Source of the DNA: Nitrosopumilus sp.
Lineage (GTDB): Archaea > Thermoproteota > Nitrososphaeria > Nitrososphaerales > Nitrosopumilaceae
NCBI GenBank assembly: GCA_965218695.1
Contig: OZ244651.1
Coordinates: forward strand, 160,001-224,000
DNA: 64,000 nucleotides
Direction: 5' to 3'
Part shown: positions 3,624 through 62,914 of the stretch, piece by piece
How the letters are laid out: each line of letters starts with the position of its first letter
How positions within the stretch are numbered: position 1 is the first letter of the stretch
Notes under the pieces: generated by a model
Database searches by the model: none
Seen by the model: the letters and a program-made list of their open reading frames with translations, nothing else
Told to the model about the DNA's origin: nothing
Made by a program: the position numbers and the translations under genes

Positions 3624-3666
3624 ATGGTTTGTAAAGCCATAATAGTTGAGAATGACAGTATCCACC

Positions 3667-30395: not shown

Positions 30396-30403
30396 GATTT
30401 AAC
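30396..30403 (-). promoter_or_regulatory. putative TATA box of the OLD-like ATPase gene
   Basis: GTTAAATC on the minus strand, 22 nt upstream of ATG 30373, purine-rich BRE-like sequence adjacent. Confidence 0.55.
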
Positions 30404-30420
30404 TTATTCGACGTTTGATT

Positions 30421-31557
30421 TGCTACGTTGTACAAAAAGTAGTTCCTCCCCTAGCCAATGGAGCCGGCGTGTTTGGAAGCAAGATCAGCCTGGTGTTGAG
30501 TGGAAGCAAGGGTGTGTGGGCAAGAACGATGTACTCCAATCGGTGGCGGCATATGGGAACCCGGAGAGTACGCATCATGAAAAAGCTGGACGAATCGAAG
30601 GTAAGGTGGATACTTTCGGAGAAGGACAAGGGATCCACCAATTCATGCATCTCCAAGGCCATGGGTGTGTCGCCGCGGTGGATAAGGAGGCTGTATTCCA
30701 GGTACAGGGGACAGGAACGCAGCAGCGTGGCATATCCGATGCACATGGGCAGGCCCGCATGCGGCCTTCCCGGCCGGAAGGAACACTCTGCGGTACTGTG
30801 CGCCAAGGGCAATGACCATGTTGGGGCCGTACGCCTGCACGGGCGCATAAGGGACGTCACCGGAATAAATATTCCATACAACCGCATACACATGGTATTG
30901 CGTGACGAGGATCTGGCTGCCAGACAGCCCAACAAGAGCAAGCGCCGCAAGTGGATCCGCTTTGAGCGCACCTACTCCAACTCGATGTGGCACACCGACT
31001 ACAAGCTGCTTGACGACGGCAGGTGGTTCCTGTGCTACGAGGACGACGCCTCGCGGTTCGTGACTGCGTACGGCACGTTTGAGCGCGCAACGGCAGAAAA
31101 CGCCCTGTCGGTATTGGACGAGGCGATAAGAAACCACGGCAAGCCTGCATCCATAATGACTGACCGCGGATCCCAGTTCTACGCCACCGCATCAGAGGCA
31201 AAGAAAAAGGGTGCATCCGAGTTCGAAAAGAGGCTGGCAGAGCTTGGTATCAAGCAGATTCTGGCAGGCGTGAGGCACCCGCAGACCAACGGCAAGCTGG
31301 AGAGGCTGCACGGGGAGATCCAGCAGAAGCTGCCCGAATTTGAGGCGATAATGATGCGCAAGAGCGACCCGGTGGACCTCTTCATGCAGTGGTACAATTA
31401 CGACAGACCGCACATGTCACTTGGCCTAGACGGGGAGGAGACGCCAGCCCAGGCGTTTGTGCGCAAGATGCCACCCAAAGGAGAGATAGTAATAGACGAG
31501 CAGACAGGGGAGGAGTATCATGTGGAGTAAGGGAGGAACTACTTTTCGTATTCCACA
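30421..31557 (+). mobile_element. IS481-like insertion sequence
   Basis: IR AAAAGTAGTTCCTCCC / GGGAGGAACTACTTTT; flanking direct repeat ACGTTTGATT (30411-30420 / 31558-31567). Confidence 0.85.
30577..31530 (+). CDS. IS481-type integrase-core (rve) transposase
   Basis: WHTDYK, DDASR, TDRGSQF and HPQTNGKLERLH motifs. Confidence 0.92.
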   Translation: MKKLDESKVRWILSEKDKGSTNSCISKAMGVSPRWIRRLYSRYRGQERSSVAYPMHMGRPACGLPGRKEHSAVLCAKGNDHVGAVRLHGRIRDVTGINIPYNRIHMVLRDEDLAARQPNKSKRRKWIRFERTYSNSMWHTDYKLLDDGRWFLCYEDDASRFVTAYGTFERATAENALSVLDEAIRNHGKPASIMTDRGSQFYATASEAKKKGASEFEKRLAELGIKQILAGVRHPQTNGKLERLHGEIQQKLPEFEAIMMRKSDPVDLFMQWYNYDRPHMSLGLDGEETPAQAFVRKMPPKGEIVIDEQTGEEYHVE

Positions 31558-31569
31558 ACGTTTGATTTG

Positions 31570-31885
31570 TTCCTGAACCCGGCTTCCTACAACCGTGTAT
31601 CCTAGTCGTCCCAAAAACCAGGCATGGTTTTGCCGAGTCGATCCCATTTCTGCCTGGATCCATTCTGAACTAGTGGTGACACCACGCTAACAAGAATGCT
31701 GCGGCGAACATCTTAGCTAGCGTACGTCTCCACTTGGCGGCTGACGGCCAAACCCGATTCGTCGGAGGCATCATTGCGGATGTCTCAGTCGTCACAAGAC
31801 GTAAGGATCACGGTTCGGTTGCAGACATGCAACCGGCAGGTCGGCTAGAACCCGGCAGAGACGATGACAGTGCAGGCTGCAAGCG
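31570..31885 (+). pseudogene. tnpB: degenerate 3' end of a tnpB (IS200/IS605-type) with downstream structured region
   Basis: HANKNAAANIL at 31683 resembles the TnpB RuvC-III hADxNAAxNI motif; stops upstream; hairpins at 31812-31852. Confidence 0.55.
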
Positions 31886-32771: not shown

Positions 32772-32798
32772 CCCGCCCGACTCTGCGAGGTTGGTGAA

Positions 32799-34130
32799 TA
32801 CATGATAACCCTACCCACCCACCACATGTGGCGGGCTGACCCCTAATTACGCATGGTCGCAAAGACCTGGTTGTTGAATGGGGCTATCCAAGCTGCTGTG
32901 TTACTGGACTCCGAGTCCTGATAGATGTATGCAGCTACCGGCCTGTCACACAAAAAAAGGGAGGTGAAAGAAATAGAAAAGAGTATTGGAATTGACATAG
33001 GAAAGAGAAAATGTGTAACGTGTATAATGGATCACAAGGGGACAATCCTGGAAAAGTCATCGTACAACAACACGTCCCGGGAGGCATTGGAGTTTGCAGC
33101 ATATCTAAAGGCCACATACGGCCAGTGCAAAGCAGTCTGCGAATCCACCGGAAACCACTGGATTAAGACTGCAGACGCCTTTGAATCCGCCGGAGTCCCG
33201 CTGACGCTTGCCAATCCGTTCAAGGTCAAGGCAATCGCATGGGCCAAAATAAAAAACGACACCATAGACGCAAGAACGCTTGCCAACCTGCTGCGGGCAG
33301 ACCTGGTTCCAGGCTGCCACATAGGTTCGGCCGAATCCAGGGGAATTAAGCAGGTCCTCAGGTACCAGATGACCCTAGTGCAGGACCGGACAAAAGTGAT
33401 CAACTTTGTGCACACGCTGACAGACAAATACGACATAAATCCAAAAAATGCAGGGACCAGCGTCTGGAGACCAAAGGTCCTAAAGTACCTTGAAGGAGCA
33501 GACATGAAGAATTTCAGGGACAGGTTTGTTCTGGACGGCTGCATATCGCAGATACGGTACTACAACGACGAGATAAAAAAGACCGAAGACGAGATCAAGT
33601 GCTACGTCCGAGACGCCCATGCCCCGAAGATACTGCTGAGCATGACGGGAATGAACGTGTTTTCTGCTGCACTGCTGGCAGCAGAGATCGACACCATCGA
33701 AAGGTTTGAGAACCCAAAAAAGCTCGTATCCTGGGCAGGCATGTGCCCGACGCTTCACCAGTCAGGCGACACGCTATACCACGGCAGGATGAAAAAGGAC
33801 TCGAACCGGAAGGTCAACTGGATCATGATCCAGTGTGCGCTTGTGGCAGTGTTCCATGACGCAAGGATGAAGGAACACTACACGCGCCTCCTGAAGAGGC
33901 ACAAGCACCACATCGCCATAACGCACGTCGCAAACAAGATGCTGACGATCATCTGGCACATGCTGACAGAAGGCAACCTGTACGAGGACAGAAACGAGAA
34001 ACTGTACCGCGCCAAGATCAAGGAAGTTATGAAGGCGTAGACGCAGAACCGGCAATGTCCGTAGACGATGATGCCTGATCTAGCGGATGCTGTGCACAAA
34101 TTATGGGAACTATGGGATGTTTCTACATGA
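32799..34130 (+). mobile_element. IS110-family element, copy 1
   Basis: bounded by direct repeat TACATGA (32799-32805 / 34124-34130); non-coding ends of about 150 and 90 nt. Confidence 0.75.
32925..34040 (+). CDS. IS110-family DEDD recombinase/transposase
   Basis: IGIDIGK, CESTG, KNDTIDA and WAGMCPTLHQSG motifs. Confidence 0.95.
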   Translation: MYAATGLSHKKREVKEIEKSIGIDIGKRKCVTCIMDHKGTILEKSSYNNTSREALEFAAYLKATYGQCKAVCESTGNHWIKTADAFESAGVPLTLANPFKVKAIAWAKIKNDTIDARTLANLLRADLVPGCHIGSAESRGIKQVLRYQMTLVQDRTKVINFVHTLTDKYDINPKNAGTSVWRPKVLKYLEGADMKNFRDRFVLDGCISQIRYYNDEIKKTEDEIKCYVRDAHAPKILLSMTGMNVFSAALLAAEIDTIERFENPKKLVSWAGMCPTLHQSGDTLYHGRMKKDSNRKVNWIMIQCALVAVFHDARMKEHYTRLLKRHKHHIAITHVANKMLTIIWHMLTEGNLYEDRNEKLYRAKIKEVMKA

Positions 34131-34235
34131 ATGCTGGGGGGCCAGCCCCCCAGACCCCCCGGAAGGGATTATGCGTGTCACACCGCGGGGCAAAAAGCCG
34201 TATTTTCTGCCGGTCGGGCAGGATTCTGCTTGCAG

Positions 34236-35448
34236 GGGTGTGTCCTAGAGGCATATACCCCCGGATGACAAAAGATATGGATCGGCGGATCACGGCATCG
34301 CCTAATGACTACAAAGAAACGCGACCAACGACAGTACGATTTGGTTCAGCAGTACCTGTCGGGCCTCATGCTGAATACCGTGCTGGGAATAATCAAGAAT
34401 CTTGGGGATCCGTACGCCGTCAGGCCCGGCCTGGGCGGCATGACGGCATACCCGCCTGGCGCCATGGCAGCTGTCTGCATCATGCTTGAGGCACAGCGCA
34501 CGACCTACCGTAAGATGGTCGGCATCCTCCGAAACAATAGCGCCATGGCAGCCAAGATGGGCCTAGAGAAAATTCCCTCCAAGAGCACGATAGCACGCGC
34601 CTACGGCCTGATCCCGGAATGGTACCTGGCAGAGGCACACCGGATTGCCATCAGGGAGGTGGAGGCAGGCTCCCTGGCAGCAGACGGTACCGGATACTCG
34701 TACCTGCGGTTTGTCAGGTGGTTTGACGTCAGGACCGACAGTTTTCGTACCAGAAAGGGATGGGTCAAACTGCACGCAATCGTGGATATCCGCACCAGGG
34801 TGATAATCGACTGCATGGTGACTGACAGCGCAGTGGCAGACATAAACGGGCTGTACGCGATGCTCGGCAGGTTAGGCCGGGGCACCGGCGACTTTTGCCT
34901 GGATTCTGCATACCTGGCAAGGCTCATGTGCAACATGATATCTGCGATGGGAATGGTGCCCCGCATCAAGCCAAAATCCAACACCATACGCAACGCCAGG
35001 GGAAGCCAGTCGTGGCGCGAGATGGTAAGCCTGTACATGGATGAACGGGACAGGTTTGACTCGGAATACCACCAGCGCAGCATCATCGAGGCAGTCTTTG
35101 CCGCCCTCAAGAAGATGTACGGGGACAGCACCAGGTGCCGAAAACACGAGAACCGGACAAGGGAGACTGCGATCCGTGTCATGTGCTACAACATCGAGCT
35201 CGTGGCCAGATTGCAGGCAAAAGACGGCAGGCTCACACAGGATCAAATCGCGACACTTGCAGCATAGCTGGCGCGTTTCACCACGCGCTTCCTAGCGGAG
35301 CCTCCGCACCGTGTCTTGGATTTGGGGGATTTTATGGGTTGTGGAGGATCGATGGTGCGGCACTGTTGGCGTCGACGGGTTCTGGCACCAATCATGTCTT
35401 TGGCATTCTGGTACATGAAATGGCATTTTTTATTACTAGGACACACCC
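34236..35448 (+). mobile_element. IS5-type element B, copy 1 (transposase 34305-35267)
   Basis: TIR GGGTGTGTCCTAG; TSD TGCTTGCAG/TGCATGCAG; empty site visible at 56808-56816. Confidence 0.92.
34305..35267 (+). CDS. IS5-family DDE transposase
   Basis: AADGTG, WVKLH, LDSAY and YHQRSIIEAVF motifs. Confidence 0.92.
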   Translation: MTTKKRDQRQYDLVQQYLSGLMLNTVLGIIKNLGDPYAVRPGLGGMTAYPPGAMAAVCIMLEAQRTTYRKMVGILRNNSAMAAKMGLEKIPSKSTIARAYGLIPEWYLAEAHRIAIREVEAGSLAADGTGYSYLRFVRWFDVRTDSFRTRKGWVKLHAIVDIRTRVIIDCMVTDSAVADINGLYAMLGRLGRGTGDFCLDSAYLARLMCNMISAMGMVPRIKPKSNTIRNARGSQSWREMVSLYMDERDRFDSEYHQRSIIEAVFAALKKMYGDSTRCRKHENRTRETAIRVMCYNIELVARLQAKDGRLTQDQIATLAA

Positions 35449-35612
35449 TGCATGCAGGTAACGCTTAAGAAGTCAAAAAACATACCCAAGGTGACAAGTT
35501 GGACGCAAAACCTGGATAAGTCCGGGGATGGGTTAACATAGATGCGTAATTCTTCTGACCGCCTAGTCTAGTCCGATACGTTCAATGATCCCATGATCGC
35601 CCGCACGCGATA

Positions 35613-36622
35613 ATGATCAAACACAACAGACGGGAAAGATACTGACAGTACTACGAACTTGCAAACGAAGTCGAGGCATCCCACCTGAGGAGGACGCTGA
35701 TTGAAATGATTCTTGAGAACCCCTGCCCGCGCTCCGAAAACGACAACAGGGGCCGTCCTCGGATTCACTCCAAGGACAAGCTGGATTTTGCCTGCCTGCC
35801 TGCCTGCTGATGAGGGCATACAACAACACATTCCGCAGGATCGAGTCAGACCTGCACGACATGCGGACTCCCTGGGACGGCGAACCCGTGCCGGATCACA
35901 CCACGATAGTCAGGCACCTCCAGATCATCCCGCCAGACTGGATGGATTTGGTGCTGGCCGAGACTGCTCGCCGATGCATCGCCGGGGCGTCCGGGGCAAC
36001 CGGACCGCTGGCTGCAGACAGCAGCGGAGTGGAGACTACCCGGTACGAGGACATCGAAAAACCCTGCAAAAGGGAGCGCGATTTCGTCGAGATGCGCCAA
36101 AAGGCCTACTGGAAATACCACGTAACGGCCATCATGGGGCTACAGATCGTGCTGGCCGCGTTTGGCACGCCTGGCAACGTCAACGACGTCACGATGCTGC
36201 CAGTCATGCTGGCAGAGATCAGGCGCCGCGGGTATGACTTTTCGGGGCGCGTCTTTGATGCGGACCGCGGGTATGACGCCGACTACAACTTCAAGGAGCT
36301 GTTCTGGATGGGCATGACGCCCAACATCAAGCAGAGAAAGGACGCCGTCAGCAGGGGCAAGCCAAGCAGGAAGAAGGCAGCCGGGCTGTTTGACTCGCAC
36401 GAGTACAGGACAAGAGCCCTGGTGGAAGGCATATTCGGGGCCGAGGAGAGCCGGCGGCACCAGCTTCACTGCAGGTTCGTGCGCGAAGACAATCGGCGCC
36501 GGTTTGCCAAGGGACGAGCAATCTCATGGAACATCCGGATCCTCAACCGGTTTAAGTGTGCCTGCCGGCTAAATATACCGATACCGTCCTACGGCGGTTC
36601 GGCTCGCACGGAGTGCGCCTGA
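35613..36622 (+). pseudogene. IS5-A transposase with in-frame TGA (35643) and (CCTG)4 frameshift (35791-35806)
   Basis: N-terminal RGRPRIHSKDKLDFACL is out of frame with MRAYNN...ADSSG...DADRGYD...YRTRALVE. Confidence 0.85.
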
Positions 36623-38015
36623 TGATCCAACCCGTCCGTATCTGACCCCGTCCGTGAGAATGCGGCGGGAAATATTCAGATTAGGACATATCGGAATTAT
36701 GCACCAACCTCCGACTGTATGAGTTCACCTGCCCCTTATATCAGTCGACCAACTTCTTCGGCCACGCTCTTGCCATGTGCCCTCCACGTGAGGACGCATG
36801 TAACAAAATCTGCAAGACGCTTCATGGACTTGGGCCCACCCTTGGTCTGCCCGCTTATCTTGCGGAACACCACCAGATAGCGCAGTGCCCTCTCGCCGGC
36901 GTTGTTTGTAGGGTCGACACCTGGATGCTCCAGGAACGCAAACATGCGGTGCAGGTGCCTCTCAAGCTTGTCCAGCACCTTTTGCATGTCGTCATCGTTA
37001 CCACCACCTGCATCGCGATACCGGTCAAGCATGTCCTGCATGGTGCGGTTCATCGCATGCCGCAGATGTGGCGAGTGCGCCTCCTGCGCGGCCAGCAGTT
37101 TTGCCCTCTCAAACACCCACTTGTGGTCCTCGTGGAGCTGCCGCCGCCGCCGGACGCGTTTGGTCTTGGGAGGCACGGCACAGTATTTTTCTGCCAGGTG
37201 TCTTGTCTGCCGGAGGTCGTGCGCCCAGCACGACTGGTGCATGCCGCCCTTGTCAAACCTGTCATACCCGTTGTACCCGTCAGTTATCGCCACCCCGTCA
37301 AATTTGTCCATGGCATCGAGCATGAGCGTGGCCCTGCTCTGGCTGATGTTTATTGCGATATTTTTGCCCGACTGTGCCACGTTTGCGTGCACCCTCTGGC
37401 CGTCGTTTCGCCAGCTGGTCTCGTCAAACCCGGCACAGTCAGAAGCCTCCACTTCCCCGAGGATCCTGCCTGCCTCGTGGCCCGAGGCGTCCCCGACGCG
37501 CGCCATGATGTTGTTGACAGTGGATCCTGCAAGCTCAATGTCCGTTATGGAGCGCACCGCGACCGAGATTCCCTTGAGCGGCACCCGTGCCGCGCGCAGT
37601 TCTGAGACGAGCCCGACCAGTCCCTTGCCGAAGTTGCCCCGCCGCGGCAGGTCGTTTGGGGCATCTTCCCTGCGGCCGCATGAGCCGCATATTGCAGTCT
37701 CCACGCGGTGCCGCGTCTCGCACGCAGTCACCATGATGTCCGTGATGTCCCGCACGCGCGGACTGCCAATCGCCATCCGGCCGCCGCCGCACCCGCATTC
37801 CGGGAGTACCGGCACCTGTCTCCTGCCCGACTTCCTGCGCCCGAACCTGTGGGATACGGTCCTTTCCGGGTCGTGGGAGCGCGACGCCCCCACGTGTCCA
37901 TCTCTTCCCCCGCGCTTGGCTTTGTCTCCCTTTTCCTGTTTTTTTGCCCGCTCCCTCTTCTGGGCCTTCCATTCCAGGGATTCAGATGAGGGCGGCGTGT
38001 TGGGGTTTGTATAGT

Positions 38016-39486
38016 AGATTCTATGCGTAATCGCACTTAATTTTTAATTTTAGACAGCACGCATGAATTATTGTTGGATTTGCGGATTAATTCTGCATCA
38101 AGGCATGCGGTGCCGGAGACATTTTACAAGCATTTGCAGCAATACGTGCGCACCATCCCCGCACCGCGATGTGCACCGGTTCTGTTATCAGAACGGGGCG
38201 CTGCCTGCAGGCGGGACGGCCCCGTTCCAGTCAATGACTGTCTCCCACCTGCCAGGCGGCGGCGGGCCCTTGTCTATCTTGTCCCATAGCAGGTGCAGGT
38301 TTACCAGTCCGGTGGCCACGTTGAATTCGTAGTTGAACCTGCCTATGGTCCCGTCGTACGGGTCTGTCAGGCGCGCGTATCTCTTGAGCCTTCCGATGGA
38401 GTGCTCCACGCGCACCCGGACAGAGTTGACCAGGTGGTTGTGTTCTTTTTGCTTGGCAGTCAGGATCCGGCGGTTTTTTGATCTCTTGTGGGGGATCATG
38501 AGCGTTGAGCCCGGCAGATCCTTGCCGGTTCCCTGGTAGCCCCTGTCTGCCCAGACGCGGATCCTGTCTTTTTCCGGCGTGGAGGCCTCGCGCATGGAAT
38601 CGGCCCACCTGCCAAACGGCATAGGATCCTCCCTGAGCAGCGTAATGTCGCCGGTGGAGCCGACGGAGCTTTTCGAGATCCCGATTATCACCCCGTCGGC
38701 GTTGGTGTAGACTGTGGTGTTGTAGGTAAAGCGCTTCTTCTTGCCCGAGTACATCATGCGCCTGAGGGTCTTTTCTGACGGGCGCCGCACCGGACAGTGC
38801 GTGCCGTCTGCGATGATGTTGCCCCCGTCGGATCCGGGCACGATTTTTTTGAATTCCTCCTTGGTCTTGCACGAGGCCACCTCTTTTGAGACGTTTTTGG
38901 CAGTGGGAAGCACCCCGGCCAGCATCTTGTCCATCACCTTGAGGTACCTGCACACGCTGGTCTGGTCGATTCCGAATATTGCCTGCAGCGTGCCCTGCGT
39001 GGGGTTGTCTTTTTTGTGCATGAGCGACATGAGCAGGGCGTGCCGGAGGCGCAGCCTGCACCTGTTTCCCGGATCAGAGGCCCGGGATTCGTCGTCGCGA
39101 AACAGCGGCATGTCGCCGGATGCGGTGGCGTACGCCAACACCCGCTCCAGAACGTGCCGGAACTCCTCCCTGCTGCACAGGGTCGCAGAGCGCAGGCTGG
39201 ACTCGTCTGATATGACGCCGTCAAAGACCTCGATCCTGTGCAGGTCCGTGCTGTTCCCCGGGTCCCAGCCCTCCTCCCTGTTCTTCCACAGGCGGCGCTC
39301 GATGTCCAGCTCCTTGTCCTTTTGGTCTAATTCCTTGTCTTTCTGTGCCAGAGTCTCGTTTAGTTTTTTAATTTCCTGTTGCATCTTGCGTATGGCTTGA
39401 TCAGACGAATCCTGCATTTGGAATGTAGCGAGATTATGTCTGATCTAAACTTATTGGATTGATGGGTGGGATTACGCATAAAATCT
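38016..39486 (-). mobile_element. IS5-family (DDE_Tnp_4/ISL2-Harbinger-like) element inserted in IS66-B
   Basis: TIR AGATT(C/T)TATGCGTAATC; TSD AGT (or TAGTA if the ends are 1 nt shorter). Confidence 0.88.
38188..39417 (-). CDS. DDE_Tnp_4-type transposase
   Basis: IIADGTHCPV, YSGKKK, ADRGYQG and RVRVEHSIGRLK motifs. Confidence 0.92.
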   Translation of the reverse strand: MQDSSDQAIRKMQQEIKKLNETLAQKDKELDQKDKELDIERRLWKNREEGWDPGNSTDLHRIEVFDGVISDESSLRSATLCSREEFRHVLERVLAYATASGDMPLFRDDESRASDPGNRCRLRLRHALLMSLMHKKDNPTQGTLQAIFGIDQTSVCRYLKVMDKMLAGVLPTAKNVSKEVASCKTKEEFKKIVPGSDGGNIIADGTHCPVRRPSEKTLRRMMYSGKKKRFTYNTTVYTNADGVIIGISKSSVGSTGDITLLREDPMPFGRWADSMREASTPEKDRIRVWADRGYQGTGKDLPGSTLMIPHKRSKNRRILTAKQKEHNHLVNSVRVRVEHSIGRLKRYARLTDPYDGTIGRFNYEFNVATGLVNLHLLWDKIDKGPPPPGRWETVIDWNGAVPPAGSAPF

Positions 39487-39735
39487 AGTATGTCATGATG
39501 CGCTCGCTGTACCCCAAGGCCCTTTCAAGACGTTCGATCTTGGCAAGCACCTCTTCAATCTTGGACTCGAGCATGGCATTTTTCTTCCTTTCCTCAGCCA
39601 GTTCCCTCTCCAGCTGTTCCCTGTTCATGTGCCGTGGGTTCCCCATGGACAGGGATGTGTATTACCAGCATATGGATCAGTATGATCATTTTTTTGTGAC
39701 AGGAAGGACAGGTGAATTCATACCTCCGACTCTGC

Positions 39736-40948: not shown

Positions 40949-40953
40949 CGACT

Positions 40954-42492: not shown

Positions 42493-42504
42493 CCCCGACT
42501 CTGC

Positions 42505-43717: not shown

Positions 43718-43732
43718 CGACTCTGCTAAATA

Positions 43733-43740
43733 GATATAAG
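43733..43740 (+). promoter_or_regulatory. putative TATA box of the 43764 gene
   Basis: TAAATA-GATATAAG, 23 nt upstream of the ATG. Confidence 0.6.
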
Positions 43741-43763
43741 GGAATTGGAGATCCTAAAACAAA

Positions 43764-44207: not shown

Positions 44208-44252
44208 GAATATCCTATGATAAATATGAGGCGATTCTGAAGGTGTGGTGTC

Positions 44253-46910: not shown

Positions 46911-46956
46911 TGTCGGAGACTACAACGGTTTAATACCTGTATCTTGGGACAAAATC

Positions 46957-49512: not shown

Positions 49513-49648
49513 GACTGATACACCCACGAGGCCTTTAAAAAAGATACCAGAACCGTCTCAGGACAGATAGGTGTAGATGGGATGGCCGTGTCCATGTATG
49601 ATTGCACTGCCGCAGAGGATATGATGCCTGCAGACAGTTTTCTGGCGG

Positions 49649-49831: not shown

Positions 49832-49940
49832 ATCTTAGATGAGACTGCAAGTGAATTTATGTATTTGGAATGACTGACCTGTCACTTGTTTCATATCCAC
49901 TGACGCCTGCCATGAACTGCCGGGCAGAATGGTACTATTA

Positions 49941-51665: not shown

Positions 51666-51703
51666 CCCCAACAGAATAATCAAATGATTTATTTTAAATC
51701 TTG

Positions 51704-53417: not shown

Positions 53418-54364
53418 CTTGTTCAATTGGCTTGGCTTTGAATATAACAGTTGTTTGCGCGTTATGTCAAAGGCAGTGGTCAAGTCCAAACCCATGGAGT
53501 TGTGGGCATGGCTGTGGAGATGTTTATGGATGGAATGGTGCCAGATCATATCATTCTCTTGCCCCCGAACATCCAGAAGATGGTCTGGGATACCGATCTC
53601 TAAGATACCGCCTACCTCATGCTGATAGACATGGGAACAGGAAGGTGCAGATCTGATTGGATGAATACTGCACAGGTCCCAATGGGCTGTGGCGACTTGC
53701 TGTTTTTTACGAGGTTGGTGAATACATGATAACCCTACCCACCCACCACATGTGGCGGGCTGACCCCTAATTACGCATGGTCGCAAAGACCTGGTTGTTG
53801 AATGGGGCTATCCAAGCTGCTGTGTTACTGGACTCCGAGTCATGATAGATGTATGCAGCTACCGGCCTGTCACACAAAAAAAGGGAGGTGAAAGAAATAG
53901 AAAAGAGTATTGGAATTGACATAGGAAAGAGAAAATGTGTAACGTGTATAATGGATCACAAGGGGACAATCCTGGAAAAGTCATCGTACAACAACACGTC
54001 CCGGGAGGCATTGGAGTTTGCAGCATATCTAAAGGCCACATACGGCCAGTGCAAAGCAGTCTGCGAATCCACCGGAAACCACTGGATTAAGACTGCAGAC
54101 GCCTTTGAATCCGCCGGAGTCCCGCTGACGCTTGCCAATCCGTTCAAGGTCAAGGCAATCGCATGGGCCAAAATAAAAAACGACACCATAGACGCAAGAA
54201 CGCTTGCCAACCTGCTGCGGGCAGACCTGGTTCCAGGCTGCCACATAGGTTCGGCCGAATCCAGGGGAATTAAGCAGGTCCTCAGGTACCAGATGACCCT
54301 AGTGCAGGACCGGACAAAAGTGATCAACTTTGTGCACACGCTGACAGACAAATACGACATAAAT

Positions 54365-56015
54365 GTAACTGCATAGTTTTTTGATCAAATGTTGAACTCC
54401 ATGCCTACGCGCGTCTATGCAGTTTTTTGACGTGGAGCCAGGCCCTCGCGCAGGATCGTGCCAAGATCATCTCCCCTTGCCTTGCATGTCTGCTTGATGC
54501 TCATCAGCGTGGCAATGGCATCTGCGCCATCCTTGGATCTGCTCCCGTTGCTGTTCTTGCGCAGGATGACGCACGGCCTGATGGCCCGCTCTGCCCGGTT
54601 GTTGTGGTATTCGACGCCGTCTGTCTCCAGAAACGCAAACAGGTGATCCCTTTCCCGCACCAGCCTCTTGCGCATCCTGTTGCAGTGCTTGCAGTCGCGG
54701 TCCTTTTCGAGCCTGCCGATAAGTGACGCGATACGACGATCCAGCCTCTTCTTTGCGGCAAGCGCGTCTGCCCCTCCCGGAACGGCGCCGTCGATGTGCG
54801 AGTCCCACAGTATCGCGCGCAGCGTCCTTGCGTGACGCTTGTAGTCGTAGCCGGGATTCTTGTATTTCAGGGTGTCCTTGATGTCCCGGGCGTAATGAAG
54901 GTGGCACTTTTGGTGTTCGGATCCGATGACGTTCCACGCGGCCCACGAGTCAGACGTGACGCATCCCGGGTAGTCCTTGCCGAGCATCTTTTTTGGAACC
55001 TTCGAGTTCCTGTGGCGGTGCACCTCGTAGATTACGGCGTACCTGGCTACAGCCACCCACAGCCAGTAGTTCGTGCCGTCGACGCGCCAGATTGTCTCGT
55101 CCCCGTTTATCGCACGCGAGTTTCTTACCTCCTCCTTGATCTTCTCGTACAGCGGCCCGAGCTCCCGGGCCATCCTGCACACCATGCGGTTTATCGCAGA
55201 TTCCGTGATTCTTGCCGAGTACATCATCATGACAATATTGCATATTCTGAGGTCTGACATGCCGTGCAGCCGGAGGATGACCATCATTATCATAAAGTTG
55301 ATCCCGTACCTGGAGTTTGGCAGTGCCAGCGGAGTCCTGCCGGACACGGTCCTCTTGCAGTTCCTGCAACGCCTTCTCTTTAGTCACCTTGATGTGCTTT
55401 AGTTCCGTCTTGGCAGCCTCCCTTACCACCTTTGTGTACGTGGACACGCATTCTGAGAGGTCGGAGCTGCCGCAGTTGTCGCACGTGTGGGGATCTGCCG
55501 TCTCCTCTGCGTCTATTCTTTCAGGACGCGCAAGGCCCGTGCGTTTGTGGTCACTTGGCTTGCCCTTGCCCTTGCCCTTGCCCTTGCCCTTGCCCTTTGC
55601 GCGGCGCCGGGTACTGCCGGTCTTTTTGTCCGGTTTTGCGCCGATGCTCCTTGCAACGGCAGCCGATATGATGCCCTTTGCCTCCTGCAACTCTGCCGTG
55701 AGATCCTGGATCTGTTTGAGGGCGGCAGCGTAAAGATCAGCGAGTTTGGCCATCTGCCGGTCTTTTTCGGCCATCTGCCGGTCTTTTTCGGCCATCTGCT
55801 CTGCCATCACACCCACTTTTTCCTCCAGTTCTGCAATCCTTGACTCGGAATTATCATCAGACATATGCAAACCGTGGGCAACAATGATCTAAAAATTAGG
55901 ACGGAGAGAAAAACTCGATCAAGTGATCAAAAATAGTTTTAAAAAATTAGACAGACGCGGATTTTCTGATTGTAGATATGGAGTTCAACATTTGATCAAA
56001 AAACTACACAGATAC
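54365..56015 (-). mobile_element. IS66-family element D (transposase 55870-54415, frameshifted near 55380)
   Basis: about 38-bp imperfect TIR ending TAGTTTTTTGATCAAATGTTGAACTCCAT; 8-bp TSD ACATAAAT; DET, QKCHLH and NNRAER motifs. Confidence 0.92.
55559..55596 (-). repeat. hexamer repeat (TTGCCC)n encoding a GK run
   Basis: about 6 perfect units. Confidence 0.9.
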
Positions 56016-56971
56016 ACATAAATCCAAAAAATGCAGGGACCAGCGTCTGGAGACCAAAGGTCCTAAAGTACCTTGAAGGAGCAGACATGAAGAATTTCAG
56101 GGACAGGTTTGTTCTGGACGGCTGCATATCGCAGATACGGTACTACAACGACGAGATAAAAAAGACCGAAGACGAGATCAAGTGCTACGTCCGAGACGCC
56201 CATGCCCCGAAGATACTGCTGAGCATGACGGGAATGAACGTGTTTTCTGCTGCACTGCTGGCAGCAGAGATCGACACCATCGAAAGGTTTGAGAACCCAA
56301 AAAAGCTCGTATCCTGGGCAGGCATGTGCCCGACGCTTCACCAGTCAGGCGACACGCTATACCACGGCAGGATGAAAAAGGACTCGAACCGGAAGGTCAA
56401 CTGGATCATGATCCAGTGTGCGCTTGTGGCAGTGTTCCATGACGCAAGGATGAAGGAACACTACACGCGCCTCCTGAAGAGGCACAAGCACCACATCGCC
56501 ATAACGCACGTCGCAAACAAGATGCTGACGATCATCTGGCACATGCTGACAGAAGGCAACCTGTACGAGGACAGAAACGAGAAACTGTACCGCGCCAAGA
56601 TCAAGGAAGTTATGAAGGCGTAGACGCAGAACCGGCAATGTCCGTAGACGATGATGCCTGATCTAGCGGATGCTGTGCACAAATTATGGGAATGGCGGGT
56701 GTTTTTACATGAATGCTGGGGGGCCAGCCCCCCAGACCCCCCGAAGGAGGATTATGCATGTCACGCCGCGGGACAAAAGCCGCATTTTTGCGGATCTGGT
56801 AGGATCCTGCATGCAGGTAACGCTTAAGAAGTCAAAAAACATACCCAAGGTGACAAGTTGGACGCAAAACCTGGATAAGTCCGGGGATGGGTTAACATAG
56901 ATGCGTAATTCTTCTGACCGCCTAGTCTAGTCCGATACGTTCAATGATCCCATGATCGCCCGCACGCGATA

Positions 56972-57981
56972 ATGATCAAACACAACAGACGGGAAAGATA
57001 CTGACAGTACTACGAACTTGCAAACGAAGTCGAGGCATCCCACCTGAGGAGGACGCTGATTGAAATGATTCTTGAGAACCCCTGCCCGCGCTCCGAAAAC
57101 GACAACAGGGGCCGTCCTCGGATTCACTCCAAGGACAAGCTGGATTTTGCCTGCCTGCCTGCCTGCTGATGAGGGCATACAACAACACATTCCGCAGGAT
57201 CGAGTCAGACCTGCACGACATGCGGACTCCCTGGGACGGCGAACCCGTGCCGGATCACACCACGATAGTCAGGCACCTCCAGATCATCCCGCCAGACTGG
57301 ATGGATTTGGTGCTGGCCGAGACTGCTCGCCGATGCATCGCCGGGGCGTCCGGGGCAACCGGACCGCTGGCTGCAGACAGCAGCGGAGTGGAGACTACCC
57401 GGTACGAGGACATCGAAAAACCCTGCAAAAGGGAGCGCGATTTCGTCGAGATGCGCCAAAAGGCCTACTGGAAATACCACGTAACGGCCATCATGGGGCT
57501 ACAGATCGTGCTGGCCGCGTTTGGCACGCCTGGCAACGTCAACGACGTCACGATGCTGCCAGTCATGCTGGCAGAGATCAGGCGCCGCGGGTATGACTTT
57601 TCGGGGCGCGTCTTTGATGCGGACCGCGGGTATGACGCCGACTACAACTTCAAGGAGCTGTTCTGGATGGGCATGACGCCCAACATCAAGCAGAGAAAGG
57701 ACGCCGTCAGCAGGGGCAAGCCAAGCAGGAAGAAGGCAGCCGGGCTGTTTGACTCGCACGAGTACAGGACAAGAGCCCTGGTGGAAGGCATATTCGGGGC
57801 CGAGGAGAGCCGGCGGCACCAGCTTCACTGCAGGTTCGTGCGCGAAGACAATCGGCGCCGGTTTGCCAAGGGACGAGCAATCTCATGGAACATCCGGATC
57901 CTCAACCGGTTTAAGTGTGCCTGCCGGCTAAATATACCGATACCGTCCTACGGCGGTTCGGCTCGCACGGAGTGCGCCTGA
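56972..57981 (+). pseudogene. IS5-A transposase copy 2 (same stop and frameshift as copy 1)
   Basis: matches 35613-36622. Confidence 0.85.
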
Positions 57982-58200
57982 TGATCCAACCCGTCCGTAT
58001 CTGACCCCGTCCGTGAGAATGCGGCGGGAAATATTCAGATTAGGACATATCGGAATTATGCACCAACCTCGTTTTTCAGTAGATGGAAATGTGTTTTTTC
58101 AGGACAACCTGATCTTGCCGCGTTCCTTATGATCACTAGGCGTTCGCCATTATTAGACTCTGGGTGTTAAAAATGGAGCGCGCGAGTCTTACACGTTCAA

Positions 58201-59346
58201 ATGAAAAACAAGCAATCGCTCCAAATACAGTCCGCCGAATCTGCATATAAGATCATCGGCCCCGTACTGTTTTCCCTGTTGCAGATCAAGTTCTCAGACA
58301 GGTACAACGCCCTATACGGACCGGTCCACTTTTTTGAACGCTTGTTTGGCATGTGCAGGCACACCGAATACGCAGAGACTGCATGGTCCAGCGACCCGGA
58401 CGGCGGGACGGGCATTCCCACGGGCAGGTGGCTGCTTGACAGGATACGCCATATCCGGTACGACTACATGTTAAAGCGGTGCCAGGCAATAACGGATCGC
58501 ACCGTGCGCAGGATGAGGCGGCACGGCATGTTCAGGGAGCCGGTGGACATTGCAATCGACAAACACCTGGTCTGCAGGTACGACAGGTTCCGGAGGATCG
58601 TCAACACCATAAAGTCAAAACCAAAAAAGGGAACGTACAACTTTAACTGCCTGGCGACTGCAAACTGCATCGTGGCAGGCTCCAGGGCGTTTCTGGCAGC
58701 CCGGCTGGTCAGAAGGGGAGATACAGACCTCGAGGTGGTCTCAGGACTGATAGCAGACTGCAGAAGGCAGGGGATAAGGATCAAGTCACTAAAGATAGAC
58801 CGGGAGTTCTTTTCTGTGGACATCATTAACATGCTGGAGCGTGAAGGGATCCCGTTCATGGTGCCTGCAATCAAGACCAAGGGCGTCAAAAAAGCCGTAG
58901 AGGAGTTCAAAGACGGCGGGAAGGCGACGGTGTCGCGGCATTCCATAGATTCGGGACGCGATACTGCCGAGTTTACACTGATAATCCAAAAGAGGAAGAA
59001 CGGCCACTTTACGCTTGCCACCAACGCCACGGTGCCGCAGGTGCTGGGGTTCGAGTCCAGCAACGGCCTGACAGGCGCACACGGATTCGCAGAACAGTAC
59101 CGTCTCCGCTGGGGAGTGGAGACTGCGTACAGCAACTACGAGTCACTCAGGCCCCGCACCACGAGCAGGAACGAGTCGGTGCGCATGCTGCTGCTGTTCT
59201 TCCCGATATTCATTTACAACGCCTGGGCGCTGGTCCGCCACCTGCTCCGGATCTCATTCCACGGCAGGCACATGACGCTCATAAAGATGCTCAGGCTGTT
59301 TCTCAGGTTCATGAAAGAGTTGGGCCTGGCCGAACCACCCACGTGA
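58201..59346 (+). CDS. ISH3-type DDE transposase
   Basis: IAIDKH, IDREFFS and YRLRWGVETAY motifs; homologous to 2357-3541. Confidence 0.92.
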   Translation: MKNKQSLQIQSAESAYKIIGPVLFSLLQIKFSDRYNALYGPVHFFERLFGMCRHTEYAETAWSSDPDGGTGIPTGRWLLDRIRHIRYDYMLKRCQAITDRTVRRMRRHGMFREPVDIAIDKHLVCRYDRFRRIVNTIKSKPKKGTYNFNCLATANCIVAGSRAFLAARLVRRGDTDLEVVSGLIADCRRQGIRIKSLKIDREFFSVDIINMLEREGIPFMVPAIKTKGVKKAVEEFKDGGKATVSRHSIDSGRDTAEFTLIIQKRKNGHFTLATNATVPQVLGFESSNGLTGAHGFAEQYRLRWGVETAYSNYESLRPRTTSRNESVRMLLLFFPIFIYNAWALVRHLLRISFHGRHMTLIKMLRLFLRFMKELGLAEPPT

Positions 59347-59542
59347 ATTGTGTTTCTTGACGCATTCGTATGCAAGTGCCGGCCGCAAGGCTGCGCGGAC
59401 ATGCAGCAACCGGTGCCGGGGTGCCAACGGAATGTGCGCAGGACAGTCAACTGGGATTATCTTTCGGATTTGTGGGCAGCTGGTTGTTAATCATGGGTTT
59501 GATAAAGGGGGTGTCAGGCATGTGCAATTAGACACATTTCCA

Positions 59543-61734
59543 GTACGCGTTCACCTCCCCCCTTGCCAATTCCACGCTAGTCGGGATGTCATACATGGGC
59601 ATGTGATTGACTCCATCATGGAATCATCCACCAGAAGACACGTCGGTGTGAAAATGTATGGCAATGCCATCCTGCAGGCAGGCCTGAGGCTTTTTGCGGC
59701 ATGATCTGCGATGCATCCTGCCTAAGCCAAATGGTGCGGCAACGATCCGGATCTGCGGGATGTCGTGGCACGGTTATTTGAGATTCGGAAATATCGGGGG
59801 CGGTATTCCGGACCCGAACATGTCCTGCGAGGCATCGGCAGTCACCGCGTCCCCCGAGAACATTCCAAGCTTTTCTGCCGTGGCGTGAATCGTCTGGAGT
59901 TTGGCAAAAGTGTCGGCTGCCTTCCAGTTGGGAAACGCGTGGTGTATGTCGCGCGGCCTTACGATGTGCGTTCGTACGGCCCTCTCGCACGCGTTGTTGT
60001 TGCCGTCCATTCCAGGATGCCTGATAAACTCTGTAAGGTATGGCGCGGCGCGTTCAAGCGAGCCTGCAAAATCGCGGCTCTTCTCGTCTGAGACGCATCC
60101 GTTGCGGCAGGCATCGACGAGCGTCAGGATGCGTTTTTGCAGGGAATCCTGGCTTGATTTGACGTATTCTTCCAGTCCCGGGGTGTTTTTGACGAGTCGG
60201 CCTGCGTCGCAGGCCGACTCTTCTGCCCTGCCGGCCATCTCGAGTGCATTCCTTGCGGCGGTCTTGGCGTCCCGATATATCTTGAGCAGCGTCACGTACC
60301 ACGCATACTCGAAGGAATTGACTCCGTGGCGTATGGCCAGGCCCTCGCACTTGCGAACCACGTGGACAAAGCACGTCTGAAAGTCCCCCTCAAGGGCGTT
60401 GCCGGCACGGTACATGTCTGCCACGAACGGCCTGTTCAGCACCATCCAAAGCACGTCCCTCATGGTCTCCTTGGTCTTGTCAGGCCTGATGCATACCAGC
60501 ACGCAGTATTTTGAGATCAGTAGTATGGCCTGCACGTTCTTTCCTGCGACCTTTTCGCCGGACTCGTCTTCGGACACGCTTGGCGCCATGCTCATCTTTT
60601 CTGTTATCTGCGTGATGAGCGGCCGCCTCATCAGGCCGTTCCATGCGGTATGGCCGCCGGCGTCGGGTTCGGGGCGCGCAGGCGTGGGGAACGGCGCCCC
60701 GAACAAGGGAGACGGCATGTCCTCCTTTGGCTCCGGCAGCCTCGGGGCGTCTCCGAGGCTGCCGCGCGTTGCTATTGCCTCTAGGGCGTGGGATATGCAC
60801 CCCAGTGATGCCCTGATGCCGTGGTTTGATGCCAGCAGGTACTGCATGCTTCTGAGCGAAACCGATACCCTGTGCATGTTGGCAATCTTCTTTCTCAGGT
60901 TGGGGCCAAACCACGTTCCGGGAATCGAGTCCGCGTCAGGATACGTGACTGCCTGGCACGTGAGGCAGTACCCGGGCGCGATCATCTCGGCATAACAGAC
61001 TGGCTTGCCGGATTCGGTGACATCTATCACCGTCTTCCAAAAGGCATCCTCGGGCAGCATGTAGGTGCCGCCGCAGTTTTTGCACATGGGCGCACTGCAC
61101 ATCCTGATGTCAGCCGGCCTGCGGCCGTGGGAGACTCCCGGCTGACCCGGCCGGTGTCCGGGCTTTTTGCCCGTATCTGGGGCATCGCCCGTGTCTGCCC
61201 TTACCTGCGGATCACTTTTGAAGGCTCTTCGCTTCCGGGTAAACAGCACGGCGCCCCTGGATGAATGGTTCCAACTCTCGTGGACTGAAAGTTCCCGGGC
61301 CAGCTGCTTCTTCTCTGCCTTCAGGGTCCGGATCTCCTCTGCCTGGTGCGCCGTCTCCTCGATAACGACAGCCAGCGTCTTTCCGGTGGTTCCCAGAGAG
61401 GCTGCGACCAGGCCCAGCAGGATCTCCACGATTCCCCACACGCGGCGCAGCTCTGCCTGCAGTATGATCCTTTCGGATTTCGGGACAACCATTCAGGACT
61501 GCACCTGCATCCGCCGCGACGCCGTGCAGTTTGCATTCTTAAATACGGATTCTGCGTGTGTATATTGGCGCACGTGCGTGTGGGTCATGGTAATTCACAT
61601 CTCACGTGCAGCCGTTTTAATCACCTAATCTAAAAAATCTAATTTTGTTTGTAAATTCTGACCCATCCAATTGTCATATGTGCCAAAAGGCTCAACAGTG
61701 TCGCACCAAATGGAGGGGGGAGGTGAACGCGTAC
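59543..61734 (-). mobile_element. IS66-family element E
   Basis: TIR GTACGCGTTCACCTCCCCC; 8-bp TSD CATTTCCA (59535-59542 / 61735-61742). Confidence 0.93.
59774..61492 (-). CDS. IS66-family transposase (long variant)
   Basis: KPGHRPGQPG, two CxxC, EDES, QTCFVH and NNNACER motifs. Confidence 0.88.
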   Translation of the reverse strand: MVVPKSERIILQAELRRVWGIVEILLGLVAASLGTTGKTLAVVIEETAHQAEEIRTLKAEKKQLARELSVHESWNHSSRGAVLFTRKRRAFKSDPQVRADTGDAPDTGKKPGHRPGQPGVSHGRRPADIRMCSAPMCKNCGGTYMLPEDAFWKTVIDVTESGKPVCYAEMIAPGYCLTCQAVTYPDADSIPGTWFGPNLRKKIANMHRVSVSLRSMQYLLASNHGIRASLGCISHALEAIATRGSLGDAPRLPEPKEDMPSPLFGAPFPTPARPEPDAGGHTAWNGLMRRPLITQITEKMSMAPSVSEDESGEKVAGKNVQAILLISKYCVLVCIRPDKTKETMRDVLWMVLNRPFVADMYRAGNALEGDFQTCFVHVVRKCEGLAIRHGVNSFEYAWYVTLLKIYRDAKTAARNALEMAGRAEESACDAGRLVKNTPGLEEYVKSSQDSLQKRILTLVDACRNGCVSDEKSRDFAGSLERAAPYLTEFIRHPGMDGNNNACERAVRTHIVRPRDIHHAFPNWKAADTFAKLQTIHATAEKLGMFSGDAVTADASQDMFGSGIPPPIFPNLK

Positions 61735-61763
61735 CATTTCCAACTACTGTTTTTTACGGTAAC

Positions 61764-61771
61764 TTTATAAG
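61764..61771 (+). promoter_or_regulatory. TATA box of radA
   Basis: GGTAAC-TTTATAAG, 21 nt upstream of the ATG. Confidence 0.75.
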
Positions 61772-61792
61772 TACGGTACCATACGGTATATC

Positions 61793-62914
61793 ATGGTAGA
61801 TGATATCAGACTCAATAGTTTGGAGGGCGTTGGCCCCGTAACTACAAGAAAGCTATCTGACGCAGGTATTCACAACGTTATGGATCTCATAGTAAGGGGT
61901 CCTGTGGAAATATCTGAGATAACCGGTATGGAGAGGGAGACTGCAGACAAGATTGTCAACAAGGCCAGACAGCATATGGTTGAAGGCGGAATGATTGCCA
62001 AGGATTTTGTTAGTGCAAGCGAGATCTACAAACACAGACAGAGCATCGGCAAGATTACAACCGGCACAAACTGCCTTGATACGTTGTTTGACGGCGGAGT
62101 TGAGACCCAGGCTCTGACAGAAGTCTATGGAGAGTTCGGATGCGGCAAGACACAATTTGCCCATACCATGTCTGTCATGGTTCAAAAAACCAAGGCGGAA
62201 GGCGGACTTGAGGGCGGTGTCTTGTATATTGACACTGAAAACACCTTCAGGCCCGAAAGAATCGTCTCGATTGCCCAGGCACATGAGATGGATCCAGAAA
62301 AGGTTCTAGACAACATCATCGTTGCACGTGCCTACAACAGCGCACACCAGACACTGATTCTAGAAGAGGCAGGTCAGGTAATTGAAGAGAACAACATCCG
62401 ACTGATCGTCGCAGATTCTGCAGTGGGGCTTTTCCGTTCCGAATATCTTGGAAGGGGAACGTTGTCCAACAGGCAACAAAAACTAAATCATTTTGTGCAC
62501 CTGTTGTCCCGAATTGCAGAGACATACAACTGTGCTGCAATTGCAACCAACCAGGTCATGGCATCCCCTGACGTCTTTTTTGGAGATCCAACACGTCCGA
62601 TTGGCGGAAACGTCGTTGCGCACACAAGCACCTACCGGATATACTTCAAGAAATCCGGCAAGAAGCGAATCGCCAGAATGGTCGACAGTCCTCACCACCC
62701 AGAGGAGGAGACAATATTTGCCCTAGGTGAGGCAGGCGTCGTGGATCTCGAAGAGACTGTCAAGAAGACCAAAAAGAGTACCAAAAAAGAGACTTCCAAA
62801 AAGTCCAATACTACGACATCCGATGAAACCGAATCCGAAAATGCTACTGCTGCTGCTGTGAGTGCAGAACCTGCAGCAGATCTCAGTGACGATGATCCTG
62901 AACCCATAGAGTAA
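61793..62914 (+). CDS. radA: DNA repair and recombination protein RadA with Lys-rich then acidic C-terminal tail
   Basis: GEFGCGKTQ, YIDTENTFRPER and TNQV motifs. Confidence 0.98.
   Translation: MVDDIRLNSLEGVGPVTTRKLSDAGIHNVMDLIVRGPVEISEITGMERETADKIVNKARQHMVEGGMIAKDFVSASEIYKHRQSIGKITTGTNCLDTLFDGGVETQALTEVYGEFGCGKTQFAHTMSVMVQKTKAEGGLEGGVLYIDTENTFRPERIVSIAQAHEMDPEKVLDNIIVARAYNSAHQTLILEEAGQVIEENNIRLIVADSAVGLFRSEYLGRGTLSNRQQKLNHFVHLLSRIAETYNCAAIATNQVMASPDVFFGDPTRPIGGNVVAHTSTYRIYFKKSGKKRIARMVDSPHHPEEETIFALGEAGVVDLEETVKKTKKSTKKETSKKSNTTTSDETESENATAAAVSAEPAADLSDDDPEPIE

Follow-up and report, generated by a model that had tools for sequence, protein, structure and literature searches.

We describe here the arrangement of insertion sequences (IS) in a 64,000-nt window of DNA from the ammonia-oxidizing archaeon Nitrosopumilus sp. 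(positions 160001-224000 of contig C1 in the genome labelled G000), in which elements of several transposase families lie immediately upstream of promoters that they leave intact, among them the promoter of radA (61793-62914; positions are those of the window unless a contig is named). A preliminary description of this window had proposed that unrelated IS families integrate at one fixed register upstream of archaeal promoters, defined by the TFB recognition element (BRE) and the TATA box. Extending the analysis to the whole genome, we observe insertion at a fixed distance from the core promoter element, with family-specific gaps of 5-12 nt and a peak 35-44 nt before start codons. The positional association with BRE-TATA is confirmed as real and general across the genome, and the interpretation originally attached to it is partly supported.

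The genome comprises 2,627,169 bp in 9 contigs, with a G+C content of 52.8%. Self-comparison identifies 756,111 bases of repeated DNA (~29% of the 2.63 Mb), and at least 39 IS families contribute more than 370 full-length copies, an extreme load among archaea whose genomes are of such size. High G+C content and transposase load have been reported for sponge-associated members of the Nitrosopumilus group in PMC7848895, and both properties of the host match the relatives covered there.

Insertion sequences and promoters in the window

The elements of the window and the promoters beside them are listed in the table below. The target-site duplication (TSD) of the IS481-like element is separated by 7 nt from a TATA-like box on the minus strand; the ATG that follows on that strand, at 30373, belongs to an AAA-ATPase gene. 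Between 32787 and 43717, five elements share a single 9-bp target, CGACTCTGC, which was re-duplicated by each IS5-type insertion, giving the order CGACTCTGC[X02]CGACT[IS66]CTCCGACTCTGC[IS5]CGACT[IS66]CCCCGACTCTGC[IS5]CGACTCTGC. Both IS66-type F02 copies entered the junction between an IS5-type end and the 9-bp target (CTCCGACT, CCCCGACT). Because they share one re-duplicated target, these insertions are serial hits and not five independent promoter events, a point on which the preliminary description has to be amended.

The promoter spared by this cluster precedes an ATG at 43764 that opens an ORF (open reading frame) of 147 aa, uncalled by our gene finder. The IS5-type copy at 42505-43717 stands 6 nt (TAAATA) from its TATA-like box, and the F02 copy at 40954-42492 stands 10 nt from the same box once the later IS5-type element is removed. 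A metatranscriptome contig of a relative (~92% identical) matches the window from 43727 on and carries unrelated sequence before that position, so that synteny breaks precisely where the TSD ends on its promoter side. DNA contigs, which stop at the ends of IS, yielded no junction of an unoccupied target at the promoter sites.

X02, the "IS5-A" of the preliminary description, measures 1177 bp when intact, and in a finding that goes beyond that description both of its copies in the window contain a nested IS110 element. The first IS110 is in turn interrupted by one of the three 1213-bp copies of the IS5-type family F03 found in the region previously described, and the TSD of this nested copy is followed by the gap GTAACG and the TATA-like CTTAAGAA (35464-35471). 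The second X02 and an ISH3-like element occupy the short divergent spacer in which radA sits, with gaps of 6 nt (GGTAAC) and 9 nt, respectively, to the radA TATA box. A further ISH3-like element near the left end of the window is followed by a 10-nt gap, ATAATA (3639-3644) and an ATG at 3667 that opens an ORF of only 69 codons; in both ISH3-like elements, 38 nt separate the right TSD copy from an ATG (3628 to 3667; 61754 to 61793). At the right end, an F08 element runs past the window; its right TSD, which lies outside, is followed after 7 nt by the TATA-like TTTTAAAT.

The gaps given previously for the IS5-type elements (6 nt in all three cases), the IS481-like element (7 nt) and the ISH3-like element at radA (9 nt) are exact to the base, as are the two 38-nt distances. 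For IS66-type elements, gaps of 10, 10, 13 and 21 nt had been given; we also read 10 nt for F02, whereas the gaps of 13 and 21 nt are incidental, since F05 interrupts the IS110 transposase gene and F30 sits in the inverted repeat (IR) of an ISH3-like element.

Table. Insertion sequences of the window and the promoter elements next to them
Feature	Position	Strand	Target-site duplication and remarks
ISH3-like F25 (DDE_Tnp_1)	2332-3623	-	TSD ATGGT at 2327-2331 and 3624-3628
TATA-like box GATTTAAC	30396-30403	-	minus-strand reading GTTAAATC; AAA-ATPase gene 28283-30373
IS481-like F21 (rve)	30423-31557	+	TSD ACGTTTGATTTG at 30411-30422 and 31558-31569
X02 ("IS5-A", IS5-type, DDE_Tnp_1)	32787-36711	+	left TSD CGACTCTGC at 32778-32786
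IS110 nested in first X02	32797-35544		
IS5-type F03 nested in IS110	34236-35448	-	TSD TGCTTGCAG/TGCATGCAG (TGCWTGCAG)
IS66-type F02	36717-39723	+	TSD CTCCGACT = 3 nt of X02 end + CGACT
Single-copy DDE_Tnp_4 IS inside F02 copy	38016-39486		TSD AGT
IS5-type F03	39736-40948	-	TSD CGACTCTGC, target common to neighbours
IS66-type F02	40954-42492	-	TSD CCCCGACT = 3 nt of IS5 end + CGACT
IS5-type F03	42505-43717	+	TSD CGACTCTGC at 42496-42504 and 43718-43726
Spared promoter	43727-43766	+	A-rich BRE-position TAAATA 43727-43732; TATA-like GATATAAG 43733-43740; ATG 43764
Second X02	53711-58070	+	TSD GTTTTTTAC, left copy at 53702-53710
IS110 nested in second X02	53721-56903		
IS66-type F05 in second IS110	54365-56015		TSD ACATAAAT; splits IS110 transposase gene
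ISH3-like F33	58077-61749	-	TSD TTTTT, in right TSD copy of X02; 9-nt gap
IS66-type F30 nested in F33	59543-61734		TSD CATTTCCA, positions 8-15 of ISH3-like IR
Spared radA promoter	61758-61795	+	gap GGTAAC 61758-61763; TTTATAAG 61764-61771; ATG 61793
F08, left part (DDE_Tnp_1)	63699-64000	+	TSD TGTGAACC at 63691-63698; continues past window end

Insertion register across the genome

Thirty-nine IS families were defined from clustered repeats, with ends derived from modal homology limits and inverted repeats; some boundaries and TSD lengths were set by eye, and in the window ends, inverted repeats and TSDs were also read directly. Transposases were typed by Pfam. Full-length copies flanked by the TSD expected for their family were excised, innermost first, to a total of 329; the 7 copies of IS110 bring the excisions to 336, of which 309 passed at the strictest setting of exact boundaries and perfect TSD. 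The counts exclude 34 full-length copies with no matching TSD, which were left in the sequence, all truncated copies, and the repeat clusters F20, F24, F29, F31, F34 and F38 together with most second-round clusters, whose ends or TSDs could not be fixed. The IS-free residue of 2,155,029 bp was used as the pre-insertion genome, and genes were called on it with a simple Markov-model finder that is blind to both IS and promoters. This returned 1672 genes (74% coding), and the mean composition before their start codons shows two blocks, one of A/T (-30 to -23) and one rich in A (-35 to -33), which we read as the TATA box and BRE of mostly leaderless genes.

Distances were measured between the TSD edge that faces the promoter and the first start codon beyond it that points away from the IS. 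The 287 top-level insertions comprise 200 intergenic, 42 genic and 45 in residual repeats, with 49 further insertions nested in other IS; 200 of the 242 unmasked top-level insertions are thus intergenic, though 74% of unmasked bases are genic. Measured against the available intergenic positions, the 200 intergenic events are depleted at 0-29 nt before the start codon (5 versus 15.6 expected), strongly enriched at 35-39 nt (24 versus 2.3) and 40-44 nt (13 versus 2.3), and back near expectation at 45-54 nt (3 versus 4.4). Merging hits no more than 15 nt apart and dropping the window leaves 175 unique intergenic sites, of which 29 lie at 35-44 nt (~4 expected), with 3 in each of the bins 45-54 nt and 55-64 nt. 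The genome-wide comparison of TSD and start-codon positions proposed in the preliminary description thus yields a peak, whether the binomial test is made against availability (p 1.4e-16) or against the neighbouring 20 nt (p 2e-9). It exceeds what short spacers predict, persisting in spacers of at least 300 nt, where 15 events fall in the 35-44 nt bin and 25 over the following 100 nt. Insertion density reaches ~3.4 per kb in the peak, compared with 0.42 in intergenic DNA overall and 0.11 in IS DNA; by spacer type, it is 0.52 per kb in divergent (74 in 143 kb), 0.47 in tandem and 0.17 in convergent spacers (15 in 86 kb). Repeated use, two to five times per site, was seen at fourteen sites, and a promoter near C1:1,280,000 was hit by four elements from three families.

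For the core promoter element itself, a 16-nt BRE/TATA weight matrix obtained by expectation-maximization was dropped: at ~2.7 bits it was too poor in information, and profiles of its mean score had no clear signal. A plain criterion was used in its place, namely an all-A/T hexamer at the family gap, counted from the TSD edge. The hexamer starts 5-9 nt from the TSD in the IS5-like families F03/X02, F08 and F17 and the rve-type F11/F21, 9-11 nt in ISH3-like families with a 5-bp TSD and 10-12 nt in IS66 F02, and within each responsive family the offset is sharp to ~1-3 nt, individual gap windows being 5-7, 6-7, 7-8, 9-11 and 10-11 nt. It is found at the family gap in 100 of 155 events, with ~15.5 expected at matched random positions (91 of 144 outside the window), and at least five of the six positions are A/T at the register in 82-100% of events for most responsive families. 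The excess holds for every class of site: 34 of 40 promoter-proximal sites (30-49 nt; expected 5.0), 12 of 14 at 50-99 nt from the start (1.7), 33 of 55 at 100 nt or more (6.3), 3 of 7 at less than 30 nt (0.9), 6 of 14 genic (0.4), 9 of 17 in residual, masked repeats (0.8) and 3 of 8 nested sites (0.4). With a fixed window common to all families (gap 5-12, against a control gap of 30-37), the totals are 139 versus 62 of 329 events.

This element is polar and lies on one side. Only 7 of the 100 hits have the hexamer on both sides. Aligned on the A/T run, sites away from any called gene have A at 39/54/67/49% in positions -6 to -3, with G at 3% at -4 (real gene promoters, A 38/39/49/40% at -6 to -3), and a T-then-A polarity within the hexamer; in all of this they equal or surpass real promoters. 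From the A-rich tract and the T-to-A polarity it follows that the IS lies on the BRE side of the element. An ORF of at least 50 codons starts 20-36 nt past the start of the run in 37 of 62 such non-proximal hits, compared with 23% of random hexamer runs; many of these sites are therefore probably promoters missed by the gene finder, as at the ORF opening at 43764. Hexamer runs positioned as promoters are occupied far more often (29 of 687) than other oriented intergenic runs (50 of 10,476; odds ratio 9.2, p 8e-16). The IS itself is oriented at random with respect to the motif (~51 toward, ~54 away), which argues against selection for outward-reading IS promoters. TSDs of F03, F02, F06, F08 and F17 are diverse and hold no conserved sequence; a conserved TSD or target was found only for the IS630-like elements (TA) and IS110. 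That position relative to BRE-TATA is conserved, and not the target sequence, had been inferred from the window and is borne out here.

Three transposase superfamilies account for the responsive elements: DDE_Tnp_1, with the IS5-like and ISH3-like families; rve, with the IS481-like ones; and IS66, through F02 only. Those of the IS5/IS4 group (F03, X02, F08, F17) encode DDE_Tnp_1 (PF01609) and have terminal inverted repeats and TSDs of 8-9 bp. The families F06, F12, F15, F25, F26, F32, F33, F35 and F36, with a DDE_Tnp_1-type transposase, CAG... termini and a 5-bp TSD, are ones that we take to be ISH3 by the criteria of ISfinder; F21 and F11 are IS481 (rve, PF00665, TSD 12-15 bp), and F02, F00, F05, F16, F23, F28 and F30 are IS66 (PF03050, GTA... 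termini, 8-bp TSD). In the fixed window, responsive groups score 63-72% and their controls 11-25%: DDE_Tnp_1 with an 8-9-bp TSD 36 versus 12 of 50, ISH3-like 40 versus 15 of 59, rve 12 versus 2 of 19 and IS66 F02 18 versus 3 of 25. One ISH3-like family, F26, has the register in none of its 7 copies. The sum of gap and TSD length is ~14.5-15.5 nt for DDE_Tnp_1, ~18.5 for F02 and ~21-23 for rve, so that neither the edge nor the centre of the TSD provides one universal register. The single fixed register of the preliminary description accordingly gives way to family-specific gaps, from 5-7 up to 10-12 nt.

The register recurs in two other genomes of the genus, whose radA DNA is 98% and 89% identical. 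They contain 37 full-length relatives of F03, F06, F08, F11, F12 and F17, two of which were left out because their ends were not found, and the hexamer stands at the family gap in 26 of the remaining 35 (24 of 33 with a TSD), ~3 of the 35 apparently sharing their site with G000 and so not being independent. The radA promoter was hit independently in all three genomes by different IS families: X02 and the ISH3-like element in G000, the end of an F27-like element in G002, and in G018 an F08-like element that stands 6 nt from CTTATTAAG. IS66 F02 had no match among 5 genomes, and this family is without a replicate.

Several further habits of the IS complement were noted. The rve-type F11 (C1 686942-688373) has an unusually long TSD of 15 bp in 9 of 9 copies. 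F27 (C1 917932-919268; L002 ~1490-1500) encodes only a TnpB/Cas12f-like protein and has terminal inverted repeats, a 7-8-bp TSD and the promoter register in 2 of 2 copies. The IS66-type F00 and F05 duplicate A/T-rich octamers, a regional A/T preference; for the responsive families a preference of this kind was considered and rejected, the start of the hexamer being confined to a window of 2-3 nt. F30 inserted three times at positions 8-15 of an ISH3-like inverted repeat (window 59535-59542; C1 1074772, 2132329), and F02 and F28 too favour the last few bases of other IS; this targeting of IS ends by IS66-type elements is a separate habit. IS110 forms no TSD, and its target is always ..TTG^CRTAATT.., which is typical of the terminal repeats of IS, the left end of X02 among them (further sites at C1 239030, 241654, 776512, 1621536 and others). 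With 99% identity between them, the two X02::IS110 composites seem to have moved as one piece. Copies lacking matching TSDs often carry each other's TSD halves, as in F00 and F16 (C1 1092028, 1021727, 1097482, 365475 and others), pointing to inversions or other recombination between IS copies. Two repeat tracts also lie in the window: ~17 tandem copies of a 27-nt unit at 44319-44777, within the ORF 44253-45170, whose number varies, as 27 or 270 nt are missing there from related-strain contigs, and degenerate 21-nt repeats at 20808-21212 that encode a lysine/threonine/alanine-rich stretch of the ORF 20769-22292.

Candidate mechanism and rival explanations

The reading we prefer is that these IS lineages are targeted through a nearby promoter element, read as DNA bent and occupied by the TATA-binding protein (TBP) and transcription factor B (TFB), and not through the sequence that is duplicated; we hold it to be probable, if only by a small measure. 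Under this reading, staggered cuts would place the end of the TSD a family-specific 5-12 bp upstream of the BRE-TATA A/T run, and thereby ~35-50 bp ahead of the start codons of genes that are mostly leaderless, with the promoter element on one side only, the IS on the BRE, or upstream, side and the IS free to face either way. An insertion on the BRE side lets promoter and gene survive, so that the duplicated target can be hit again. The feature read would be promoter DNA bent and occupied by TBP/TFB, or the edge of the pre-initiation complex; transpososomes may capture a pre-bent, accessible target beside a protein barrier, and the geometry of each may set its own offset. The part assigned to TBP and TFB is a putative one, suggested indirectly by the polar motif and the ~9-fold preference for real promoters, and what is read out could be the bent DNA, the protein edge or an open stretch just upstream. 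Readout of a promoter complex is the best reading in that the BRE-TATA element is polar, that it stands on one side while the IS face either way at random, that three superfamilies converge on it and that real promoters are preferred.

A serious rival, which we rate as unlikely overall, is that each transposase itself recognizes an A-rich tract and a T-to-A hexamer at a fixed distance with no host protein involved, this intrinsic preference for promoter-like DNA having evolved convergently because such sites are harmless. The following observations suit this rival or weigh against a promoter complex. The motif is simple and local and is present even at genic and nested sites, and the register is family-specific. 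Promoters are not used by other IS families of the cell: the IS630-like DDE_3 families, which duplicate TA, lack the register (10 of 75 versus 13 of 75 in the control), as do the DDE_Tnp_4 families with a 3-bp TSD (7 of 38 versus 10) and the IS66 lineages F16, F23, F28, F30 and F37 in the same comparison of gap 5-12 with its control. Promoters are accordingly no universal landing pad. The involvement of unrelated families proposed in the preliminary description stands, with at least three superfamilies, and its family independence does not, the IS630-like, DDE_Tnp_4, other IS66 and IS110 elements all departing from it; the phenomenon is multi-family. Nested insertions ignore transposase promoters as well, with 0 of 47 at 30-50 nt upstream of the parent transposase start where ~6 would be expected if IS promoters were equally attractive, a result that fits intrinsic recognition or weak IS promoters; the test is a weak one, since transposase starts and promoters are only assumed, and the starts may be wrong. 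Moreover, 55 of the 155 responsive-family events lack a perfect hexamer, the genes come from a home-made simple finder, and the family gap windows were picked from the same data that they score. The promoter-proximal subset alone reproduces these windows, however, so that the remaining events amount to a near-independent test. What speaks against intrinsic recognition is that a one-sided determinant with random IS orientation is unusual for transpososomes of two-fold symmetry, that one polar composite motif would have to have been reached by convergence in three unrelated superfamilies, and that real promoters are hit ~9 times more than other A/T hexamers, though better BRE matches could explain part of this preference.

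Insertion could instead follow accessibility, into DNA that is open or underwound, be it in a narrow gap that separates the pre-initiation complex from upstream chromatin with its histones and other nucleoid proteins or where DNA is negatively supercoiled behind an active polymerase, with no capture of a bend and no direct contact. The sharp upstream limit of the peak at ~45 nt, the depletion at 0-29 nt, the preference for real promoters and the lack of an IS-orientation bias all agree with this explanation, but we judge it improbable: family-specific offsets sharp to 1-2 nt speak for a structural ruler more than for an open window of a general kind, and the IS630-like and DDE_Tnp_4 elements of the same cell do not use such a window. 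Purifying selection combined with short spacers, under which IS would insert at random and only copies sparing genes and promoters would survive, piling up at the promoter edge, accounts for the intergenic bias, the depletion before starts and the location of radA in a short divergent spacer. As the sole cause of the peak it is contradicted, in agreement with what had been argued from the window, and we give it very little weight. The signal is a peak and not a step and persists in long spacers; the motif also occurs at genic, masked and nested sites, where there is presumably no promoter to spare; and selection can only thin insertions, whereas the density of the peak exceeds that in host-neutral IS DNA. 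The same 5-15-bp spot is also re-used with 1-4 kb of neutral IS DNA alongside, and convergent spacers are the poorest in insertions. An artefact of the pipeline, arising from IS boundaries, home-made gene calls and the crude hexamer criterion, is the explanation we find hardest to credit. Boundaries and TSD lengths were partly set by eye and the gap windows were picked with the data in view, but 309 of the 336 excisions have exact boundaries and perfect TSDs, the gene finder recovers the TATA/BRE profile despite being blind to IS and TATA, the internal control with a fixed window and the sister genomes agree, and the cases of the window can be read by eye.

Related systems and significance

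The closest known systems are eukaryotic: Ty3, TRE5-A, Ty1 and Tf1. Ty3 of budding yeast integrates at the start sites of RNA polymerase III (Pol III) genes via TFIIIB, which comprises TBP and Brf1, a relative of TFB/TFIIB. It shares with the archaeal elements a fixed-register integration beside a TBP-containing initiation complex that spares the gene and provides a safe harbour in a compact genome. It differs in being a long terminal repeat retrotransposon with one integrase, whose dependence on the factor has been shown biochemically, whereas here IS with DDE transposases of several superfamilies insert upstream of BRE-TATA with family offsets and with a factor dependence that is putative. 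TRE5-A of Dictyostelium and Ty1 insert at a set distance upstream of tRNA genes, and resemble our case in lying tens of bp upstream of a transcription unit and in hitting the same sites repeatedly to form nested clusters; they are retroelements that use the Pol III machinery, in contrast to the ordinary protein-gene promoters of an archaeon. Tf1 of fission yeast, the P element, Hermes and piggyBac prefer promoters or nucleosome-free regions. Their enrichment at promoters offers a possible parallel to accessibility as an explanation, but it is regional, over tens to hundreds of bp, compared with 1-3 bp per family here.

Among bacterial elements, the insertion spots of IS5 in Escherichia coli appear to be influenced by DNA structure or bound regulators, and the likeness lies in an IS5-type element using preferred spots upstream of a promoter. 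To our knowledge, E. coli IS5 and IS1 have not been reported to keep a fixed register to a core promoter element across the genome. Their insertions concern few loci, found by selection for activation, in a bacterial sigma-70 setting. Examples upstream of flhDC, bglGFB and glpFK are given in PMC9208149. Sequence-specific targeting is also at work in the present genome, where IS630-like elements duplicate TA and IS110 uses its ..TTG^CRTAATT.. target. IS630 is known to target TA or CTAG. For the IS110 family, target choice guided by a non-coding RNA is reported in PMC11187229. The families with a promoter register differ from these in that their TSDs are unrelated and the conserved part lies outside the TSD, on one side only. 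We found no description of promoter-register targeting by archaeal IS in the literature searched, which covered few subscription journals.

If the proposed targeting is true, it explains how a 2.6-Mb genome of symbiont type with several hundred IS copies still keeps its genes, and it constitutes an archaeal counterpart to the Pol III-directed safe harbours of yeast and Dictyostelium retroelements. Sites of IS insertion would then serve as a free promoter map obtained from sequence only, including the promoters of unannotated small genes, and the system would be directly testable for how transpososomes use protein-bent DNA. For annotators it carries a warning: IS clusters would mark promoter-proximal hot spots, where rearrangements between copies will reshuffle promoters. 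A broader proposition, which we put forward tentatively and regard as possible but somewhat doubtful, is that archaeal promoters bound by TBP/TFB serve DDE transposases from several superfamilies as a general platform for target capture, a prokaryotic counterpart of Ty3 and TFIIIB. Were that so, IS could reach ~29% of a small genome without destroying its genes, and the same register should be detectable in other IS-rich archaea.

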